Assembly: GCA_965276605.1 (NCBI GenBank)
Contig: OZ255619.1
Location: 2,258,119 to 2,322,118 of the forward strand
From: Acidobacteriaceae bacterium
Lineage (GTDB): Bacteria; Acidobacteriota; Terriglobia; Terriglobales; Acidobacteriaceae
DNA length: 64,000 nt
Reading direction: 5' to 3'
Shown here one piece after another: positions 1,090 to 60,741 of the stretch. How positions within the stretch are numbered: position 1 is the first letter of the stretch; the number at the start of each line of letters is the position of its first letter. The position numbers and the translations under genes were made by a program. Below the pieces are notes generated by a model. That model saw nothing but the letters and a program-made list of their open reading frames with translations, searched no databases and was not told the origin of the DNA.

Positions 1090-1488
1090 ATGAACTGTCG
1101 AAAGACAAAAGCATGGCTGGCGGCCGGGGCTCTGCTCTGTGCCACAGCAGCACCGCTTGTACCCGCAGCATACGCGCAGTATGACCGCCACAATAACAAT
1201 AATGGTCACAGCAACTATTACAGCGGTCAGCGCAACAGCGAGCGCGGCGGCAACTACGACCAGCGCTACCGGCAGGGCGACCGCAACCACCACGACGACC
1301 ACGGCGGCGGCATCGGCCCAGGCTACGGCGCGTTAATCGGCGGCGGCGGCGGCGCGGCTCTGGGCGCCATCTTCGGCGGCGGACTCAAGGGAACACTGAT
1401 CGGCGGCGCGGCCGGCGCGGGCCTCGGCGCGCTCGGCGGCAAGCTGGCCCAGGGCAACAACCACCATGACGATTACCATCGCCACTAG
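1090..1488 (+). CDS. secreted glycine-zipper protein with His/Asn-rich flanks
   Basis: ATG 1090 is preceded by GGAGGA. Signal peptide MNCRKTKAWLAAGALLCATAAPLVPAAYAQ, then an N/H/R-rich segment and a GxxxG-rich block GALIGGGGGAALGAIFGGGLKGTLIGGAAGAGLGALGG. Confidence 0.6.
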   Translation: MNCRKTKAWLAAGALLCATAAPLVPAAYAQYDRHNNNNGHSNYYSGQRNSERGGNYDQRYRQGDRNHHDDHGGGIGPGYGALIGGGGGAALGAIFGGGLKGTLIGGAAGAGLGALGGKLAQGNNHHDDYHRH

Positions 1489-1602
1489 AGCCGTTTGCCT
1501 GCTCCGACAGTGAGACCAACGACACTCCACGTGGTTTTTCCGCCAAGAAAAGCCACATGCAACAACAGTCGCGCCTGGCCATCTACAGGCAAACGGCTCT
1601 AG
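1485..1602. repeat. structured ~118-bp repeat, copy A (CTAG-terminated inverted arms + conserved core hairpin)
   Basis: Perfect 17-bp inverted arms CTAGAGCCGTTTGCCTG (1485-1501) / CAGGCAAACGGCTCTAG (1586-1602). Core hairpin GTGGTTTTTC-CGCCAA-GAAAAGCCAC at 1531-1556. The left CTAG contains the TAG stop (1486-1488) of the upstream gene. Confidence 0.75.
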
Positions 1603-2419: not shown

Positions 2420-3463
2420 TTGAGTCTGGATGAACCGCAACCTGCCTCGCAGAGCAGGCCGCAACGCCTGCTGAAACGCGCAAAGGTCAGCGCGCTCGGC
2501 ACCTACGTACCGCCCCGCATCCTTACCAACGCTGACCTTGAAAAGATGGTCGATACCTCCGATCAGTGGATCGTCGAGCGCACCGGCATCCGCGAGCGTC
2601 ACCTCGCCGAAAAAGGCACGGCGACCAGCGATCTGGCCTCCCAGGCCGCACGCCGCTGTCTTGCCGACCGCGGCATCTCCGCCGACGAGGTCGAAGTCAT
2701 CATTCTGGCAACGGTCTCGCCCGACATGCCCTTCCCGGCAACCGCCTGCCTGGTGCAGGAGAAGATCGGCGCGCACCATGCCTGGGGGTTCGACCTCGGC
2801 GCTGCCTGCTCCGGCTTTCTGTACGCGCTGCAGGTCGGCGCCAAGCTGATCGAGAGCGGGGCCCAGCGGAACGTAATGGTGATTGGCGCCGACACCATGA
2901 GCTCGATGATCGACTACACCGATCGCTCGACCTGCATCCTCTTCGGCGACGGCGCGGGCGCGGTGCTGCTGGAGGCTACCGAGGAGGGCGAAGAGGGCAT
3001 CCTCGACTATGCGCACGAGATCGACGGCTCCGGTGCAAATGCGCTGCGCCTGCCCGCCGGCGGCAGTCTGCAACCCGCCAGTGCCCAGACTGTCGCCGAC
3101 AAGCTGCACTACGTCCACCAGGACGGGCAGACGGTGTACAAGTTCGCCGTGCGCAAGATGGCCGAAATCTCGGAGAAGGTACTGACCCGGAATGGCCTCC
3201 AGGGCAGGGATCTGGCCTGCTTCATCCCCCACCAGGCCAACCGGCGCATCATTGAGTCGACCGCGCAGCGCCTGGACATGCCGATGGAGCGAGTGCTGAT
3301 CAACATCGACCGCTATGGCAATACCATCGCCGCAACCGTCCCGCTGGCCATGGGCACCGCGCGCGAAGAAGGCAAACTCAAGCGCGGCGACATGGTTCTG
3401 CTCACCAGCGTCGGCGCAGGCTTTACCGCCGGCGCCACCCTGCTGCGCTGGGAGCTGGACTGA
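2420..3463 (+). CDS. fabH: beta-ketoacyl-ACP synthase III
   Basis: ORF 2366..3463. [40 protein letters not shown] is near-identical in pattern to the FabH N-terminus; AACSGF and HQANRRI/GNT motifs are present. Start placed at TTG 2420 after GGGAGAG (2408-2414); TTG 2366 is the alternative. Confidence 0.9.
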
Positions 3464-3476
3464 AGCGAGGGCACCA

Positions 3477-3533
3477 GGCGAACAGGCAAAGGCGAACAGG
3501 CAAAGGCGAACAGGCAAGAGGCGAACAGGCAAC
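3477..3533. repeat. 14-bp tandem repeat, four units
   Basis: GGCGAACAGGCAAA x2, then GGCGAACAGGCAAG, one extra A, then GGCGAACAGGCAAC. It lies in the convergent spacer between fabH and the DedA-like gene. Confidence 0.9.
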
Positions 3534-26789: not shown

Positions 26790-27713
26790 ATGGAGATGGC
26801 GCAGCTGGAAACCTTTCTCGCCATCGTCGAGGAGCGCGGCTTTTCACGGGCAGCGGTGCGCCTGCACCGGACCCAGCCGGCGGTCAGCCAGGGCATTCGC
26901 AAGCTGGAAGAGGAGCTCGGCGAGCGGCTCTTTGAGCGAGGCAGCCGCGACGGGACCCTCACCGCTGCCGGCGAGGTGCTGCGCAGCTACGCCGAACGCC
27001 TGCTGCGTCTGCGCGGCGAGGCCGCCAGCGCCGTCGAGGAGTTGCGCTCGCTCGAGCGCGGGCGCCTGCTCGTGGCGGCGAACGAGTACACCTCGCACTT
27101 CCTGCTGCCGGTGCTCGCGGCCTACCGGCAGAGCAGCCCGCAGATCGGCATCGTGGTGCAGCGCTCGCTCGCGAGCCGCATCCCGGAGCAGGTGCTGGAG
27201 CGTTCGGTCGAGCTCGGCGTGCTCTCGTTTCTGCCCGAGCAGGAAGGGCTCTCGGCCATCGCCGTTTACGAGGACGATGTCGCGCTGGTGGTCGACCCGG
27301 GCCACCCCCTGGCCAGATCCTCGTCGGTTTCGGTCTGCGACCTGGGCGCGCAGAACTTTATCGGGCACGCGGTCGCCTCGCCGGTCCGAAGCGAGATTAC
27401 GGAGCTGTTCGCACGCCTCAAAACGCCGCTGCACATGGGCGTGCAGCTGCCCAGCCTCGAGGCCATCAAGCGTTTTGTCGCCCTGGGCGCCGGCGTCGCG
27501 ATCCTGCCCGGCCTCGCCGTCCTGCAGGAGGTCGCCCGCGGCGAGCTGGTGCGCGTGCCCGTGCCGGAGCTCGACTGGAAGCGCCGTCTGTGGCTCGTGC
27601 GCCGCCGCCAGGGCATGCTCTCGCACGCAGCCAGCGCTTTTCTGCGCACCTTGCGCACCCTGGCGGAGGAACAGGGGCTGCCCCACCGCTTTGCGCCGGA
27701 ACCCGACAGCTAG
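26790..27713 (+). CDS. LysR-family transcriptional regulator
   Basis: N-terminal wHTH LETFLAIVEERGFSRAAVRLHRTQPAVSQGIRKLEEELG plus a substrate-binding domain. Divergent from the leu-ilv operon. Confidence 0.92.
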   Translation: MEMAQLETFLAIVEERGFSRAAVRLHRTQPAVSQGIRKLEEELGERLFERGSRDGTLTAAGEVLRSYAERLLRLRGEAASAVEELRSLERGRLLVAANEYTSHFLLPVLAAYRQSSPQIGIVVQRSLASRIPEQVLERSVELGVLSFLPEQEGLSAIAVYEDDVALVVDPGHPLARSSSVSVCDLGAQNFIGHAVASPVRSEITELFARLKTPLHMGVQLPSLEAIKRFVALGAGVAILPGLAVLQEVARGELVRVPVPELDWKRRLWLVRRRQGMLSHAASAFLRTLRTLAEEQGLPHRFAPEPDS

Positions 27714-27826
27714 AGCACTTCTCCCACAGATGTAGCGGAAGCCATCCCACTCCACGTGCCTTTCCGTCAAGAAAAGCCACACACCACGAGTCATGGAAGT
27801 GCATACCTATGGGAGAAATGCTCTAA
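27710..27826. repeat. structured ~117-bp repeat, copy B
   Basis: Arms TAGAGCACTTCTCCCA (27711-27726) / TGGGAGAAATGCTCTA (27810-27825), one mismatch. Core CACTCCACGTGCCTTTCCGTCAAGAAAAGCCACA matches copy A. The left CTAG holds the LysR TAG stop. Confidence 0.75.
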
Positions 27827-44712: not shown

Positions 44713-44876
44713 AAACCGCCTGCGCGGCTCGCGGCCACTTCGTGGCGTGTTCTCGTTTCCGTGGCCCTCCCGTTGGTCGGGGATATGGATCCCGAGCATC
44801 GCGAGGGCCACAATGGCTTGCACCTGGCACATAACGCCACACGGCACGAAGTGCCCGCCAGCCGCGCAGGCGGTTT
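44713..44876. repeat. interspersed repeat family 2, full copy: 32-nt inverted arms with a nested 9-bp inverted repeat
   Basis: AAACCGCCTGCGCGGCTCGCGGCCACTTCGTG (44713-44744) versus CACGAAGTGCCCGCCAGCCGCGCAGGCGGTTT (44845-44876), 30/32 complementary. Inner GTGGCCCTC (44761-44769) / GAGGGCCAC (44803-44811). Confidence 0.8.
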
Positions 44877-54024: not shown

Positions 54025-54771
54025 ATGCAGCCTGCATGGTCGATTCGGGGTGGGGCTCGCCGCTCGCTCACACGTCGTTTTACGAAAGCTCTCGGCCGCC
54101 TGACACTGTCGGCTGCTTGCCTTGCTATGTCTGGCTGCCAAAGTGTTTCCACTGCCTCACAGAGCTCGCTGCTGCGGGTTATCGATGCGTCGAGTAACGC
54201 ACCGGGCATGGATGTGCTGCTCGGCTCACAGCTTTTTTTCTCGAATCTCGGTTCGCCTGCTTTCAGCAACTACGCTCCCACAGGTGCTGGAATGGTGGCG
54301 GTGACGGCGCGGCCCAGCGGCCAAACAGGCAGCGCCGGCCAGCGCAGCGAGCTTACCGCTGTCGCCGGACTGTACTACTCCCTGCTGCTGACCGATGCCG
54401 GCGCCGGTTATCAGTCCGCCATCCTGGCGGACCAGTCCATCGCCGCTCCCGCCGGGCAGGTTTCGCTCCGCCTGATTGAGAGCGCTCCTGTAGCCGGCCC
54501 GGTGGATGTCTATCTGTTGCCGAACGCGGTTCCACTGGCAAATGCCAGCCCGGTTTTCAGCCTGGTTGCGCCTGGTACGGTCTCTGCCTACACGAACCTG
54601 ACGGCCGGCGACTATACCGTGATCGTGACCGGCGCCGGCTCGCTTATACCCAAGCTCGATGGCAGCACCATGACGTTGAGTGGTGGGCAGGTGCGCACGC
54701 TGCTGCTGGTCGACCAGAAACATACGAGTGATGCGGAGGTGTTGATGGTGGTGGGCGACGACGTGAACTAG
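54025..54771 (+). CDS. DUF4397-like lipoprotein
   Basis: Lipobox LAMSGC. Repeated beta-sandwich-like modules LLRVIDASSNAPGMDVLL / VSLRLIESAPVAGPVDVYL. Confidence 0.6.
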   Translation: MQPAWSIRGGARRSLTRRFTKALGRLTLSAACLAMSGCQSVSTASQSSLLRVIDASSNAPGMDVLLGSQLFFSNLGSPAFSNYAPTGAGMVAVTARPSGQTGSAGQRSELTAVAGLYYSLLLTDAGAGYQSAILADQSIAAPAGQVSLRLIESAPVAGPVDVYLLPNAVPLANASPVFSLVAPGTVSAYTNLTAGDYTVIVTGAGSLIPKLDGSTMTLSGGQVRTLLLVDQKHTSDAEVLMVVGDDVN

Positions 54772-54880
54772 AGCATTTTCACTCCTGGTGTAATGGCCCA
54801 GGTTCTCGCTCCAGTGGCTTTTCCCGACGGAAAAACCACGCGCACATCTGCCGGCCCCTCTATGTGTGGAGTGAAAATGC
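54768..54880. repeat. structured ~113-bp repeat, copy C (core inverted relative to A and B)
   Basis: CTAGAGC terminus holding the TAG stop (54769-54771). Arms GCATTTTCACTCC (54773-54785) / GGAGTGAAAATGC (54868-54880). Core GTGGCTTTTC-CCGACG-GAAAAACCAC (54814-54839). Confidence 0.7.
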
Positions 54881-55105
54881 GCCGGGCTGCGGCCGAGCGG
54901 GCTGAACGGTTCGCGCTCGTGTCCGCGCTGAACGCGCAAGCGCAGGCTCAAGTATTTCCAAACGTTAGTAATCTACCGGCCAGAGAAGGGTATTGCTACT
55001 ATCCGCGGTATCAGTCCTTATCACGTCATTCCAAGTGCGCTTTGACGGCAGGTACCCAGTGTCTGCAGACCTGATCGAAGCGGCTGCTTACCAGGAAGTC
55101 CTTCC

Positions 55106-56296
55106 ATGCAGAACCAGGATCCGAAGTTGAACGCGAATGTGGAGGTAAGCCTGGAGGCTCCCGTCGATCTGGCCCGGCTCTGGTCCTGGGCCAGGATGGA
55201 CGACGTGGCCTATCAGGATTTCTCGCAGCAAAGAGCGGACCGGCGGCTCGGCCGTCGGGTTGAGGAGCTGCCTCCTGTCTCGCTAACTCCCCGACCTGTG
55301 GACGCGGCGGAGGCTGCTGGCAACACTGTTTATCTCCCGCTGGAGCAGCCGGTGGTCCAGGCTCCGCCCATCGGCCTGAATGAGGACGGGAAGGCGGGTG
55401 GCATGCGGCAGGACGCCGCTGCTTTCAGGGCGCTCGCCGGCTCTACCCTCGCATCGATTGCGTCTAGTATCACGCCCACTGTTGTCGCGAGCTCGCCCAG
55501 TGCAGTCGCGGGGCCGTCGTGGTCCGCTGCGCCCGCCGAGCTCGCGAGCGCCCCTTTGCCGCTCGACCGGCCGGCTGCCCTCGCGATCTACTCTGTTGCC
55601 GGCGGGGTGGGCAAAACGACGCTGTGCGCCAACCTGGCCCGTTCGCTGTCTGCGCTTGGGGAGCGTGTGCTTCTCGTGGAAGCGGGCGGCCTGGGGCTGC
55701 TCCCGCTGCATTTCGGCGCTGACCACATGCGCCCCGGACTGCGCAGCTTCTGCGCCCCCGGCGAGAGGCGCGCCTCGGTCCTGGTGCTGGGTGAGGAGCA
55801 GCCTGGGGAAGCCTGGATGCGCGAGGCTGTCGAGCCTGCCATGCACGGCGTGGCGCGCACCCTCTTCGATCTGGGCCCGGCGAGCGAAGGCTTTCTCGAC
55901 CAGGCGCTCGCCGTGTGCCAGCTGATGCTGGTCCCGGTCCTGCCTGACCTCAACTCTACCCTCACCTTCTCCCGCATCACGGCGCGGCTCGACCGCCTGC
56001 GGGCGCAGGGCATCGCCTGCCCGCAGGTTTACTTCGTCCTCAACCGCTTCAATGAGCGCAGCGAGCTGCATCGCCGGGTGCGGGAGCAGCTGGCGTTGGA
56101 GTACGGCGAGCAGCTGCTGCCCTGCGTCCTCAATGCCAGTGACGATGTTACTGAGGCCCTCGCAGCCCGCATGCCGCTGGCCGACCTGCGCCCCGCCTCC
56201 GAGCTCGCCCATGACTTCGCTGAGCTGGCCAGGTGGCTGCAGCGCTTGCAGCAGCCGGAGTTGCCGGGCCAGCCGGGCCGCTGGAGCGAAGAGTGA
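55106..56296 (+). CDS. bcsQ: cellulose-synthase operon ParA/MinD-type ATPase BcsQ with a long N-terminal extension
   Basis: Deviant Walker A SVAGGVGKTTLCANLA lies ~165 aa into the protein. The C-terminal ~230 aa are colinear with BcsQ/YhjQ. Confidence 0.75.
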   Translation: MQNQDPKLNANVEVSLEAPVDLARLWSWARMDDVAYQDFSQQRADRRLGRRVEELPPVSLTPRPVDAAEAAGNTVYLPLEQPVVQAPPIGLNEDGKAGGMRQDAAAFRALAGSTLASIASSITPTVVASSPSAVAGPSWSAAPAELASAPLPLDRPAALAIYSVAGGVGKTTLCANLARSLSALGERVLLVEAGGLGLLPLHFGADHMRPGLRSFCAPGERRASVLVLGEEQPGEAWMREAVEPAMHGVARTLFDLGPASEGFLDQALAVCQLMLVPVLPDLNSTLTFSRITARLDRLRAQGIACPQVYFVLNRFNERSELHRRVREQLALEYGEQLLPCVLNASDDVTEALAARMPLADLRPASELAHDFAELARWLQRLQQPELPGQPGRWSEE

Positions 56297-59200
56297 GCCG
56301 CATCTTTACCCGTTGGCAGTCGCTGGGCGCGGGCGCAAGCTGGCCGGCAAGGCTGGGCCGCGCCCTCGTGTATGCCGTGCTGCTGTTTCTCGCCTTTGAG
56401 TGCATCACCATCGATTTCCGCTGGCCGGAGCAGGCCATGCTGGGCATCATCATCATTGCGGTCGCCTACGCGATCCACAAGACTTCCGGCTCTGAGCTGG
56501 TCACGCTCTCGCTCATGTTCGCCTCGGTCAGCGCCACGGCGCGCTACTGCTACTGGCGCTGCGCGACTGTCTCCTCCGCGGTCACCGACCCCGCGCAGCA
56601 CACCGGCCTTATCAACTTCGGCTTCATGCTCCTGCTTCTTTTCGCCGAGCTGTACGCCTTTCTGATCCTTTTTCTCGGTTACATCCAAACCGCCCGGCCG
56701 CTCGGCCGCCGCCCTGCGCCGCTGCCGCGCGTGATCGACGAGTGGCCCGATGTCGACATCGTTATCCCTACCTACAACGAGCCGCTCTCGATCGTGCGCT
56801 CTACCGTCTTTGCCGCCATCAACGTCGACTACCCGCCCGAGAAGCTGCACGTCTACGTCTGCGATGACGGCCGGCGCGCCGAGTTCCGTACCTTCTGCAG
56901 CGAGATCGACATCGGCTACATCGTGCGCAAGGACAACCTGCATGCCAAGGCCGGCAACATCAATCACGCGCTCAAGTCGATGAGCTCGCCCTATGTGGCT
57001 ATCTTCGACTGCGACCACGTGCCCACGCGCAGCTTTCTGCAGATGACGATGGGCTGGTTCTTCCGCGACGGCAGGCTGGGCCTGGTGCAGACGCCGCACT
57101 TCTTCTACTCGCCCGATCCGTTCGAGCGAAACCTCTCTCAGTTCAAGGTGATCCCCAACGAGGGCGAACTCTTCTACGGCGTGCTGCAGGACGGCAATGA
57201 CCTGTGGAACGCGACGTTCTTCTGCGGGTCATGCGCAGTGCTGCGCCGCACCGCGCTCGACGAGGTTGGCGGGATCGCGGTGGAAACTGTAACTGAAGAT
57301 GCGCATACCTCGCTGCGCATGCAGATGCGCGGCTGGAGCACGGCCTACATCAATATTCCGCAGGCCGCGGGCCTGGCTACCGAGAGCCTTTCAAGCCACG
57401 TGGGCCAGCGGGTGCGCTGGGCCCGCGGCATGGTGCAGGTTCTGCGCACTGACAATCCGCTGACCGCGAAGGGGCTCGAGTGGCCGCAGCGGCTGTGCTA
57501 TTTCAACGCGATGATCCATTTCCTCTATGCGGTCCCGCGACTCATTTTTCTGACCGCGCCGCTGGTCTACATGCTGCTGGGGCGCATCAACATTCCCGGC
57601 CAGTGGCTCGCGATCCTCGCCTACGCCATGCCGCATCTCTTCCTGTCGAATGTCGTTAACTTCAGGGTGCAGGGCAAGCACCGCTACTCCTTCTGGAACG
57701 AGGTGTACGAGACGGTCCTGGCGCCGTACATCCTCTTTCCCACGCTGCTCGCGCTCATCAATCCAAAGTTCGGCAAGTTCAATGTGACGGCCAAGGGCGG
57801 CATCGTCAGCAAGAGCTACTTTGACAGGCACATCGCGCGGCCCTATGTCGCACTCATTCTGCTCAACGTGTTCGCGCTGTGCATGGCCCCGGTTCGCTAC
57901 TTCATCTGGGACGCCGGCCACCGCGGCACGGTGCTGATGAACGTTGTCTGGATCCTGTTCAACATGATCATCGTCGGCACGGCGAACGCCACAGCCATCG
58001 AGTCCAAACAGCTGCGCAACAGCGTTCGCATCGATCTGCGCATTCCCATGGAGATCCGCCTGGCCGAGAGCCGCAGCGTCTTCGGCGAGTCGGCGAACCT
58101 GTCGCTCACCGGCGGCGCCATCGCTCTCGAGGAGCCGCTGCCGCTCACGGCCGGCGCGGCCATCACGGTTGTGTTTCCGCTGCGCGGCGGCGAGGTCGCG
58201 CTGCCCGCGGTAGTCGTGCGCTCGCACGCGCTTACGCTCCGGCTCAAGTACGAGGAGCTCAGCATCAAGCAGGAAGAGCTGCTCACGCTGGTGCTCTACT
58301 CCCGCGCCGATACCTGGCTGGCCCGCAGCGAGCAGCGCGTGAAGGACCGGCCGCTGCACAGCTTTTTGCGTCTGCTGCAGCTTTCCGTTCGCGGGGTCGG
58401 TTATGCGTTGACCAGCATGATCCCCAGGAAGCGGTCGGAAGCCCAGCCAAATATTGCGAGCGCCACTGCCTCTGTGCTGTTTGCCGCTTTGCTGCTTGGG
58501 TCGGTGTTTGTAGCCTTTGCAGCACCTGCACGCGCCGCGCAGCCGCTTGCGCCCACACCGGCCGCGCAGTCTGCAGGCGCCTTCCGCTCCAGCTTCACTC
58601 TCAAAGACATCGGGTCGGCGGACGCGGTCCAGTTCCGCGGCATCGAGTCGACGCAGAGTATCCCGTTCGCGCTGCCGCAGACAGAGGTCGTGCAGGGCGC
58701 GAAGCTCAATCTGCATTACGCCTTTTCTTCCGGCCTGCTCGCGCAGCTCAGCCACCTCAACGTGCTGCTCAACGGCGTGCTGGTGGCCACGCTGCCGGTT
58801 CCGCCGCACACCGGCACCGGGCCCCAGCAGGCCCTGCTCACCAGCCTCACGCTGCCCGCGGAACTGCTGGTACGCAACAACGTCCTCAGCTTCCAGTTCA
58901 TCGGCCACTACACGCAGTCCTGTGAGGACCCGAGCAACACTGTCCTGTGGGCGCGCGTCGACAACGATACCGAGCTCGAAGTCACCGGCTCCTATATCGC
59001 GCTCTCCGGCGACCTGAAGCAGCTGCCCCTGCCCTTTTTTGACGGCGCGGTTAGCACCAGCAGCGCCTCCATTCCGTTTGCCTTCGCCGCGCAGCCCGGT
59101 CCTAAAGCCATGCAGGCAGCCGGGGTTCTCTCGTCCTGGTTCGGCGTACGCGCCAAGGCACGGGCGCTCAGCTTCCCGGTTACCGTCGGCGCCGACCTGC

Positions 59201-60741
59201 CCAAGGGCAACATCGTGCTGTTCGCGGAAAACGGGTCGGAGCTGCCCCCTGACCTGGCCGTCGAAGGCAGCGGGCCCAGGCTCGCCGTGCGCACCAACCC
59301 GTCGGACCCCTACGGCAAGTTGCTGATCCTGGCCGGCGATGACGGCGACCAACTGCTGGCCGCCGCACGGAGCCTCGTGCTCGGCAATAACTTGTTGCAG
59401 GGTTCGACCGCCCACATCGCCAACTTTGAGCTGCCGCCTGCGCGCCACGCTGACGACGCGCCGCTCTGGATGAGCACCGAACAGACGACCCCACTGTGGA
59501 ACTACTCCGAGCAGAACGCGCTGCAGAGCGATGGCTCTGGCGCGCTGCGCGCCTACCTGCGGCTGCCGCCGGATCTCTACTTCGGCGACCGGACCACGCT
59601 GCCTCTGCACCTGGACTACCGCTACAACGCGGTCCCGATCGCCAACGGTTCCACTCTCCGCGTCAGCGCCAACGACGGCCTGGTCAACGAGATGCCGCTG
59701 CCCCACCAGAGCGAGCCGGAGCAGCAGCTTGCTAGCACCCTCGCCGTCCCGATGATCGACGTGCGCCCCTTCGCGAACACTCTTTTGTTCAACTTCTACT
59801 TCCAGATCGCGAAGAAGGGCTACTGCCAGGACACGCCGCCGATCAATCTTCTGGGCGCCATCCTGCGCAGCTCCTATGTGGATATCAGCGGGCTCCACCA
59901 CTGGGCCGCGATGCCCAACCTGGAGCTGTTCTCGAATGCCGGCTTCCCGTTCACCCGCTTCGCCGATCTCTCGCAGACCATGGTCGTGCTGCCGCCGACG
60001 CCTTCCGCTCAGGAGATTTCGCTGTACCTCAACCTGCTGGCCTACTTCGGCGAGCAGACCGGCTACCCGGCGCTGCGCGTCTCGGTCGGCGACGCGGGCC
60101 AGCTTGGCGGGGACCTCGATACCCTCGTTCTGGGCACGCCGGCGGACCAGCCCGCTTTCGAGAAGCTCAACGCAGCGCTCCCGGTCGCGATCAGTCAGGA
60201 CGGCTTCACGATCCGCGAAACCGGCAACTTCTATGCCACGCTCCGCCATGCCTGGTGGCAGATCGCCCAGCTGCACACGCGCTGGATGTGGAAGGCGGCC
60301 CACGGGCCCGACCGCAATGGCCTGGTCGCCGAGCTGGGCGAGATTCCGGAGGCGTTGATCGAGGGCGTCCAGTCTCCCTGGGCCAGCAGCCGCTCCATCG
60401 TCACCATCACGCTCAGGAACAACGATGCGGCCAACGCTTTCACCGCCCCGTTCCTGGCCGCCTCCACATCCAGCGCCATCGCCGAGTCGGTGAGCGTGCT
60501 GCACGGCAGCGACTTCAGCTCCTACCGGCTCGACGACAGCTTTTACCGCGTCGGTAGCCTCCCCTGGTACGCGTGGGTCCGATACAGCCTGAATGAGTTT
60601 CCCTGGCTGATCGTGCTGTTCACGTTCGTGCTGGGGTTGTTTGTGGTGCCGTGGATTCGCGCGCGGCTCGACCAGCGCTCGAAGGTGCGCCTGGGAACAA
60701 ATCCGGTAACAACCCGGGAAACCAATCTGGAGGCGCGCTGA
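56293..60741 (+). CDS. bcsA: cellulose synthase catalytic subunit fused to the BcsB periplasmic subunit
   Basis: GTG 56293 overlaps the bcsQ stop (GTGA). GT2 motifs VIPTYNEP, YVCDDG, FDCDH, TEDAHT, FFCGS, QRVRWARG. PilZ motifs RNSVR and NLSLTGG. It continues without a stop into a ~750-aa BcsB-like region and a C-terminal TM. Confidence 0.92.
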   Translation: MSRIFTRWQSLGAGASWPARLGRALVYAVLLFLAFECITIDFRWPEQAMLGIIIIAVAYAIHKTSGSELVTLSLMFASVSATARYCYWRCATVSSAVTDPAQHTGLINFGFMLLLLFAELYAFLILFLGYIQTARPLGRRPAPLPRVIDEWPDVDIVIPTYNEPLSIVRSTVFAAINVDYPPEKLHVYVCDDGRRAEFRTFCSEIDIGYIVRKDNLHAKAGNINHALKSMSSPYVAIFDCDHVPTRSFLQMTMGWFFRDGRLGLVQTPHFFYSPDPFERNLSQFKVIPNEGELFYGVLQDGNDLWNATFFCGSCAVLRRTALDEVGGIAVETVTEDAHTSLRMQMRGWSTAYINIPQAAGLATESLSSHVGQRVRWARGMVQVLRTDNPLTAKGLEWPQRLCYFNAMIHFLYAVPRLIFLTAPLVYMLLGRINIPGQWLAILAYAMPHLFLSNVVNFRVQGKHRYSFWNEVYETVLAPYILFPTLLALINPKFGKFNVTAKGGIVSKSYFDRHIARPYVALILLNVFALCMAPVRYFIWDAGHRGTVLMNVVWILFNMIIVGTANATAIESKQLRNSVRIDLRIPMEIRLAESRSVFGESANLSLTGGAIALEEPLPLTAGAAITVVFPLRGGEVALPAVVVRSHALTLRLKYEELSIKQEELLTLVLYSRADTWLARSEQRVKDRPLHSFLRLLQLSVRGVGYALTSMIPRKRSEAQPNIASATASVLFAALLLGSVFVAFAAPARAAQPLAPTPAAQSAGAFRSSFTLKDIGSADAVQFRGIESTQSIPFALPQTEVVQGAKLNLHYAFSSGLLAQLSHLNVLLNGVLVATLPVPPHTGTGPQQALLTSLTLPAELLVRNNVLSFQFIGHYTQSCEDPSNTVLWARVDNDTELEVTGSYIALSGDLKQLPLPFFDGAVSTSSASIPFAFAAQPGPKAMQAAGVLSSWFGVRAKARALSFPVTVGADLPKGNIVLFAENGSELPPDLAVEGSGPRLAVRTNPSDPYGKLLILAGDDGDQLLAAARSLVLGNNLLQGSTAHIANFELPPARHADDAPLWMSTEQTTPLWNYSEQNALQSDGSGALRAYLRLPPDLYFGDRTTLPLHLDYRYNAVPIANGSTLRVSANDGLVNEMPLPHQSEPEQQLASTLAVPMIDVRPFANTLLFNFYFQIAKKGYCQDTPPINLLGAILRSSYVDISGLHHWAAMPNLELFSNAGFPFTRFADLSQTMVVLPPTPSAQEISLYLNLLAYFGEQTGYPALRVSVGDAGQLGGDLDTLVLGTPADQPAFEKLNAALPVAISQDGFTIRETGNFYATLRHAWWQIAQLHTRWMWKAAHGPDRNGLVAELGEIPEALIEGVQSPWASSRSIVTITLRNNDAANAFTAPFLAASTSSAIAESVSVLHGSDFSSYRLDDSFYRVGSLPWYAWVRYSLNEFPWLIVLFTFVLGLFVVPWIRARLDQRSKVRLGTNPVTTRETNLEAR

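Follow-up and report, generated by a model that had tools for sequence, protein, structure and literature searches.

Introduction

Bacterial MITEs of 100–200 bp with terminal inverted repeats (TIRs), TA ends and long stem-loops form a described class (PMC2229807). The repeat of Acidobacteriaceae reported here resembles several of its members. RUP of pneumococcus, for which IS630-Spn1 is the proposed mobiliser, is likewise a non-coding element (~107 bp) with TIRs and with TA as target and at its ends, present in ~100 dispersed intergenic copies with a long stem-loop (PMC2229807). Sequence and phylum are different, however. The ends of RUP match a resident IS630, whereas no partner was found for the Acidobacteriaceae element, and RUP is not reported on stop codons or with deep covariation of its arms.

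Similar features are described for Correia/NEMIS of Neisseria, MITEs of 100–155 bp with TA duplication and a hairpin comprising the whole element, the subtypes of which differ in their ends; co-transcription with neighbouring genes is frequent in Correia (PMC2229807). Correia differs by its long conserved TIRs (~24–26 bp), its IHF site and its documented RNase III and promoter effects. In comparison, the Acidobacteriaceae element exhibits ~4–12 conserved terminal bases and a conserved apical hairpin, with nothing pointing to an RNA function. The bcr1 repeat of the Bacillus cereus group (~155 bp) is also MITE-like, with a target duplication, a non-conserved distribution and compensatory changes that preserve the fold (PMC3184786), but it has a 5-bp duplication and another sequence, belongs to the Firmicutes and was shown to be transcribed. 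ERIC/IRU of enterobacteria are imperfect palindromes of ~127 bp with TA termini, which are intergenic and often located in 3' UTRs (PMC2229807). In contrast to the Acidobacteriaceae element, which was recently mobile and has empty sites in the closest relative, they carry 7-bp TIRs, are mostly immobile and are inherited vertically.

The attC sites of integrons are imperfect palindromes of 57–141 nt with variable sequence and conserved structure, located just after stop codons. The element shares with them a structure-conserved palindrome just 3' of a stop codon, and it is this likeness that gives the finding its special appearance. An attC site can nevertheless be ruled out, as the termini read TAGAGC...GCTCTA and the core sites RYYYAAC...GTTRRRY are missing. 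The same holds for an attC array, since the copies lie 26 kb apart among housekeeping genes and a single 112-bp unit inserts with TA duplication. REP/RAYT systems (palindromes of 20–40 nt with a GTAG/CGTC tag, and BIMEs) were ruled out by the 112-bp unit, the GAGC tags at both ends and the TA duplication.

Results and Discussion

An earlier note on this DNA had described three copies of a structured repeat (A, B and C) in the window, that is, the whole 64-kb stretch of DNA analysed here. A covariance model obtained from 84 relatives returned the same three copies only, with 83–97 bits, and no other match above 12 bits. The copies have a length of 111–112 bp, are homologous along their entire length, and consist of terminal inverted arms and a central hairpin, flanked by TA.

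The element proper of copy A (112 bp) extends over positions 1488–1599 of the + strand (95.1 bits on + vs 64.2 on -). The left TA duplication (1486–1487) coincides with the TA of the TAG stop (1486–1488) of the upstream Gly-zipper gene; the right one (1600–1601) is seen in the sequence and corresponds to a single TA at the empty site of a relative. The arms are complementary at 17/17 positions, CTAG included, and belong to the GCCGTTTGCCTG subfamily, which is common to the loci L016, L022, L032 and L075 from OZ255626.1. With one G:T pair, the central hairpin at 1531–1556 (+) reads GTGGTTTTTC-CGCCAA-GAAAAGCCAC. Copy B (111 bp) occupies 27713–27823 on the + strand with 82.9 bits. Its left TA duplication (27711–27712) lies within the TAG stop (27711–27713) of a LysR gene at 26790–27713, and its right one (27824–27825) is given by the sequence and by the empty site of a relative. 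Here the arms (GCACTTCTCCCA) represent a singleton subfamily within the sample and are complementary at 15/17 positions, and the central hairpin at 27756–27780 (+) is degenerate (GTG-CCTTTCC GTCAA GAAAAGCCAC).

Copy C (112 bp) is found at 54771–54882 on the - strand, with 97.2 bits vs 66.2 on +. Its intact TA duplication (54769–54770) lies within the TAG stop (54769–54771) of a DUF4397 gene at 54025–54771. The far end is mutated at 54880–54884, where GCGCCG replaces GCTCTA; the 13-bp arms are perfect and belong to the GCATTTTCACTCC subfamily (cluster 2), in inverse orientation to A and B. The central hairpin was located at 54814–54839 (-) by its core-motif match and by DNA folding. The earlier note had missed this inverse orientation, and the "compensated 2-nt indel" that it proposed between B and C disappears, since the arms align without a gap once C is reverse-complemented.

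Other features of the earlier description proved accurate. The core motif GTGGYTTTTC-N-GAAAARCCAC has two exact matches in the window vs 0.00 expected by chance, and copy B contains a variant shorter by one base, GTGCCTTTCC...GAAAAGCCAC. Ahead of the core, CACTCCAC is present in A and B, and the start of every copy indeed coincides with the TAG stop of a + strand gene, encoding the Gly-zipper protein (A), the LysR regulator (B) and the DUF4397 protein (C). Folding of the three copies gave z-scores of -3.3 to -5.0 (DNA) and -4.1 to -7.2 (RNA), and with both types of folding 0/200 shuffles were equally stable.

Further features of the window were observed in the vicinity of these copies. A bacterial small SRP RNA (Rfam RF00169, 64.5 bits) is located at 2200–2297, ~600 bp downstream of copy A, and four head-to-tail copies of a 14-nt unit, AGGCGAACAGGCAA, lie at 3476–3532, directly 3' of a fabH-like gene ending at 3463. 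Copy C is situated between the DUF4397 gene and a cellulose-synthesis cluster (54025–60741, with a BcsQ-like ATPase and a 1502-aa ORF). Because relatives of the BcsQ-like gene in the genome collection show ≤38% identity and the DUF4397 query has no relatives there, this region may be accessory.

At 44713–44876 the window also contains a second palindromic, intergenic repeat of 164 bp, the 38-nt arms of which are 92% complementary. Its arm motif GCCAGCCGCGCAGGCGGTTT occurs twice in inverted orientation in locus L121 (~3498 and ~4966), flanking SRP RNA and fabH. It probably represents another MITE-like family of these genomes.

The 112-bp repeat is not confined to the window. A scan with the core motif over one genome per prokaryotic species revealed at least 110 loci; among the matches listed, nearly all belong to Acidobacteriaceae (including Terracidiphilus, strain KBS 83 and many MAGs). 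The few matches in Firmicutes and other groups are hairpins without relation to the family and are not recognised by the covariance model. The model detected additional copies in related loci. In the genome collection, which leaves out the window's own genome, the closest relative is the MAG OZ255626.1 (neighbouring proteins 87–93% identical), followed by Acidipila-like genomes.

For the alignment, 84 copies of 111–112 bp retrieved with the core motif were used. From the outside inwards, the consensus consists of TA, GAGCATTTTC with 5–7 variable arm bases and ~28 weakly conserved bases, followed by the hairpin GTGGCTTTTCC-loop-GGAAAAGCCAC, ~30 bases, the second arm, GCTC and TA. Near-universal sequence is limited to TA-GAGC. 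Clustering gave ~20 arm variants among the 84 copies, nine of them with at least four members. Several arm subfamilies coexist within one genome, and three are present in the window. As the earlier note had expected, the arms cannot be reduced to a few fixed TIR classes, and they gave no match to known IS ends. Rfam 15 contains no match at gathering score, and none at E≤10 over 1400–1700, the region of copy A; a full-text literature search did not reveal any report of an element of this kind in Acidobacteria. The MITE family of Acidobacteriaceae therefore appears to be undescribed so far.

Evidence for transposition was obtained from flanks and empty sites. TA is present on both flanks in 48/84 copies, with C or T preferred before and G or A after it. 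Targets reconstructed from intact copies are CTAG (29%), CTAA (21%) and TTAG (19%); YTAR accounts for 71% of them vs 10% for the TA sites of this DNA as a whole, and CTAG is enriched 11.6-fold. For copy A the empty site was found in OZ255626.1 (L111) as CACCAC-TAG-ACATCACG with a single TA. The absence is precise, and compared to OZ255626.1 the window contains 112 bp and a second TA inside the stop-containing CTAG. Copy B, too, is precisely absent from the closest relative and is missing from 52/52 orthologous LysR loci, the closest empty site (L130) reading GACAGC-TAG-ACC, which again is a CTAG; the copy-B LysR gene itself has no exact protein match on record. For copy C the genome collection offers no empty site, the DUF4397 query and the BcsQ-like neighbour having no or only the distant relatives mentioned above.

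In L116 (2693–2816), from another species, the stop codon that copy A uses in the window carries an element of a different subfamily. The elements are 56% and the flanks 79–83% identical, which indicates that this rare site was used repeatedly and suggests either a separate insertion there or a replacement. Each insertion recreates CTAG at both junctions. Two copies arranged head-to-tail with one TA in common were found in L080 (2660–2880) and L016 (1–40), an arrangement expected when an older copy provides, at its junction, the recreated CTAG into which a new one inserts.

The repeat thus has a length below ~300 bp without a transposase gene, terminal inverted repeats, a target-site duplication and dispersed copies with presence/absence differences, as is characteristic of a MITE, and its strict TA duplication and preference for TA within CTAG are those of IS630/Tc1-mariner elements. 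The element is mobile and its movement is recent. The earlier note had set the fold against an end recognised by a transposase; the TA-GAGC termini, the TA duplication, the CTAG/YTAR preference and the precise empty sites contradict this opposition and identify a MITE.

The location on stop codons, which had been given a functional reading, can be explained by the choice of target. In 43/84 copies (51%) an end of the element supplies the in-frame stop for an open frame that is ≥80 codons long, and in 8 copies this applies to both ends. In the same DNA, however, such stops also account for 42% of the CTAG sites without an insertion and for 41% of the YTAR sites, compared to 13% of all TA sites. 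Stop-codon adjacency is a by-product of target choice and independent of orientation: the rare CTAG-like sites of a genome with 64% G+C are mostly stops, and the position thus follows from the target preference. Since the first base of the element, a G, regenerates TAG, the upstream protein is not changed by the insertion.

The same data bear on the proposal that the element is a selected RNA module at the 3' end of the upstream mRNA, the stem-loop of which stabilises the message or blocks read-through. Selection on the RNA fold would yield both covariation and the stop-codon position, and in favour of this proposal the RNA folds far beyond shuffles (z-scores as given above), a stop codon marks the exact start of half of the copies, and transcripts of Correia/NEMIS and ERIC affect neighbouring mRNAs (PMC2229807). 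Against it, the copies show no bias in orientation towards the gene that they abut: among the stop-abutting copies the gene points towards the "left" end in 29 cases and towards the "right" end in 22, and copy C is inverted compared to A and B. Single mismatches are equally frequent as G:T (17 cells) and A:C (15), and wobble pairs are thus favoured on neither strand. The strand co-transcribed with the upstream gene is the weaker folder in A and B, with -47.7 and -38.1 kcal/mol compared to -58.9 and -57.6 kcal/mol for the opposite strand. In copy A the promoter scan gave no promoter-like site, and the terminator scan gave no match within the element and a single minus-strand match upstream of it, at the level of chance (shuffles); a U-tract terminator is missing from the element. 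Further counter-evidence comes from the empty orthologous sites in the closest relatives, the decay of the ends in orthologous copies and the background of CTAG sites at stops. Selection at the RNA level, as put forward previously, is hence highly improbable. We think that the covariation does not stem from a transcript function and that the repeat does not represent a new type of structured RNA.

The pairing itself is real. The 15-pair outer helix is paired in 90% of cells across the 84 copies, and for the specified outer helix plus core hairpin this value amounts to 93.8%, compared to 81.7% in shuffles and 40–51% with slid partners. Double-sided changes occur at 15/15 outer pairs, with 252 compensated cells vs 74 in shuffles, and the observed covariation measures were reached by 0/500 shuffles. 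At one position, for instance, 30 copies have CG, 27 have AU and 25 have GC. The statement that the arms differ and yet stay complementary therefore describes true covariation. Within subfamilies 25 compensated double changes face ~1.4 expected from the rate of single changes, a count that is inflated by shared descent. The probably orthologous pair L048/L054, matched at the left flank alone, shows a compensated CACCGT/ACGGTG vs CACTGT/ACAGTG, whereas the orthologous pair L049/L095 shows plain decay at the element ends.

The invariance of the core hairpin in the alignment of 84 copies is an ascertainment artefact of the core-motif search and was not used as evidence. In copies found by the model alone the core does covary (GCAGC...GCTGC, GGCCTTTCC...GGAAAGGCC and GCCGTTC...GAACGGC), and arm sets in which TTTTC changes to AAAGC on both sides are also found among them. 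An interpretation of the core hairpin as inner transposase sites akin to the outer ends (GAGCATTTTC vs GTGGCTTTTC), in an IR/DR-type arrangement, was ruled out, as ends and core change independently in divergent subfamilies; L048 and L013, for example, have ends GAGCAAAAGCAC and core GCAGCCGTTC.

As the pairing signal is strand-symmetric, it points to DNA. We infer that pairing as such is under constraint or bias at the DNA level, as hairpin or cruciform and equally on both strands. Of the original suggestion that selection or repair acts on the fold, as RNA or as cruciform DNA, the pairing is hence retained and the RNA part is dropped. Two causes of the covariation may be considered. Symmetric or foldable ends could be needed in transposition-competent master copies, or quasi-palindromes could be "corrected" by template switching in replication, without selection; such switching homogenises the arms of quasi-palindromes (PMC7202029, PMC8604942).

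Taken together, we consider it very likely that the repeat is an undescribed TA-duplicating MITE, a 112-bp non-coding element mobilised in trans, probably by an IS630-type transposase. TA duplication is IS630-family behaviour and defining for IS630/Tc1-mariner (PMC2170065). In the proposed mechanism, a transposase supplied in trans would cut at the TA-GAGC...GCTC-TA ends, and insertion would take place into the TA of CTAG-like (YTAR) sites with duplication of TA, as with IS630/Tc1-mariner transposases. Judging from the title of the 1991 work of Tenzen and Ohtsubo, IS630 reportedly prefers TA in CTAG. At 64% G+C the YTAR targets would be rare and would lie mostly within TAG/TAA stop codons, where the initial G of the element would rebuild TAG, rendering the insertion nearly harmless and leaving copies on stop codons in either orientation. 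The entire element forms an imperfect palindrome, in which the outer arms and the apical hairpin vary by subfamily and remain complementary.

The assignment to the IS630 type is based on the target site. In the sampled Acidobacteriaceae DNA (~1 Mb), in plasmids (BLAST) and in viral contigs (0 matches), no autonomous IS with matching ends was detected. The sole pair of GAGC-type ends 250–4000 bp apart, L050 4950–6511, was set aside because its ends match at 16/20 positions; it encloses a 418-aa ORF that by reading alone is phage-portal-like. TA-flanked inverted ends 700–3000 bp apart gave a sole match, in L121, which consists of two copies of the different palindromic repeat around SRP RNA and fabH. 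Among the ORFs of at least 150 aa between close copies at eight loci, inspection by eye gave ordinary genes and no obvious recombinase. As a protein seed, ISY100 was sought in the first 100 kb of the Synechocystis plasmid pSYSM, where no IS630-family gene is annotated.

The ends of the element begin with GAGC, and mobilisation by an IS5-family transposase (IS427/ISL2-like groups) instead of an IS630-family one has to be considered as well. According to the ISfinder family table, GAG-type ends and duplications of 2–4 bp are found among IS5 subgroups; the IS427/ISL2-like groups can generate 2-bp duplications and often have GAG/GGC termini. A strict TA duplication with CTAG preferred over CTAA/TTAG is, however, the documented IS630 signature (PMC2170065; title of Tenzen and Ohtsubo, 1991), and RUP, the best-supported bacterial precedent, is linked to IS630 (PMC2229807). 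We therefore regard an IS5-type enzyme as unlikely.

Two properties of the repeat are not readily accommodated by the preferred reading as an IS630-type MITE. Transposases of this type protect and need ~24 bp of specific end sequence, with 24 bp determined for the ISY100 transposase (PMC2170065); ~4–12 conserved terminal bases and several subfamilies per genome are not obviously predicted by purely sequence-specific binding of the ends. In addition, the IS630-MITE model has no explanation for the strong conservation of the apical hairpin.

These properties leave room for a mechanism in which mobilisation would proceed via the fold, a structure-specific enzyme reading an extruded cruciform or single-stranded hairpin together with the 4-nt GAGC tag and the TA instead of a long specific end, similar to REP/RAYT, IS200/IS605 and attC. 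It would fit with TA-GAGC being the only near-universal sequence, with arms and apical hairpin that covary even between copies of one genome, with a strand symmetry such as DNA would give, and with the failure to detect a matching IS across ~1 Mb of sampled DNA. At its centre, moreover, the palindrome is A+T-rich in a genome of 64% G+C, a composition that favours cruciform extrusion. To our knowledge, hairpin-reading HUH/Y1 transposases do not duplicate their target, and their ends are asymmetric. The element, in contrast, has a clean TA duplication, symmetric ends and an IS630-like CTAG preference; the ORFs between close copies, judged by eye, offer no obvious recombinase, and its termini contain neither the attC core site GTTRRRY nor a REP tag (GTAG/CGTC). 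Since little end sequence is conserved and the apical hairpin is unaccounted for, we assign this mechanism a small residual probability and otherwise consider it quite improbable. If true, it would mean a mobile hairpin that duplicates TA and targets stop codons, a mechanistic type not yet described; the conserved apical hairpin would be a nucleation or recognition site, and the need to be read as a fold would be what holds all stems complementary.

Conclusion

For annotation, a covariance model and exact element boundaries are gained. Two general points follow from the analysis: in a GC-rich genome, a preference for CTAG/TA as target can be enough to place a repeat precisely on stop codons, and strong covariation in a hairpin-forming repeat is alone no proof of a functional RNA. 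What remains novel is that stems can co-vary so freely in a TA-duplicating element, which either tolerates or needs this; should the transposase need the fold, the finding would be of wider interest for the mechanism of transposons. With this repeat, a defined and apparently unnamed MITE family is added to the Acidobacteriaceae, which are abundant in soil and whose mobile DNA has received little study.
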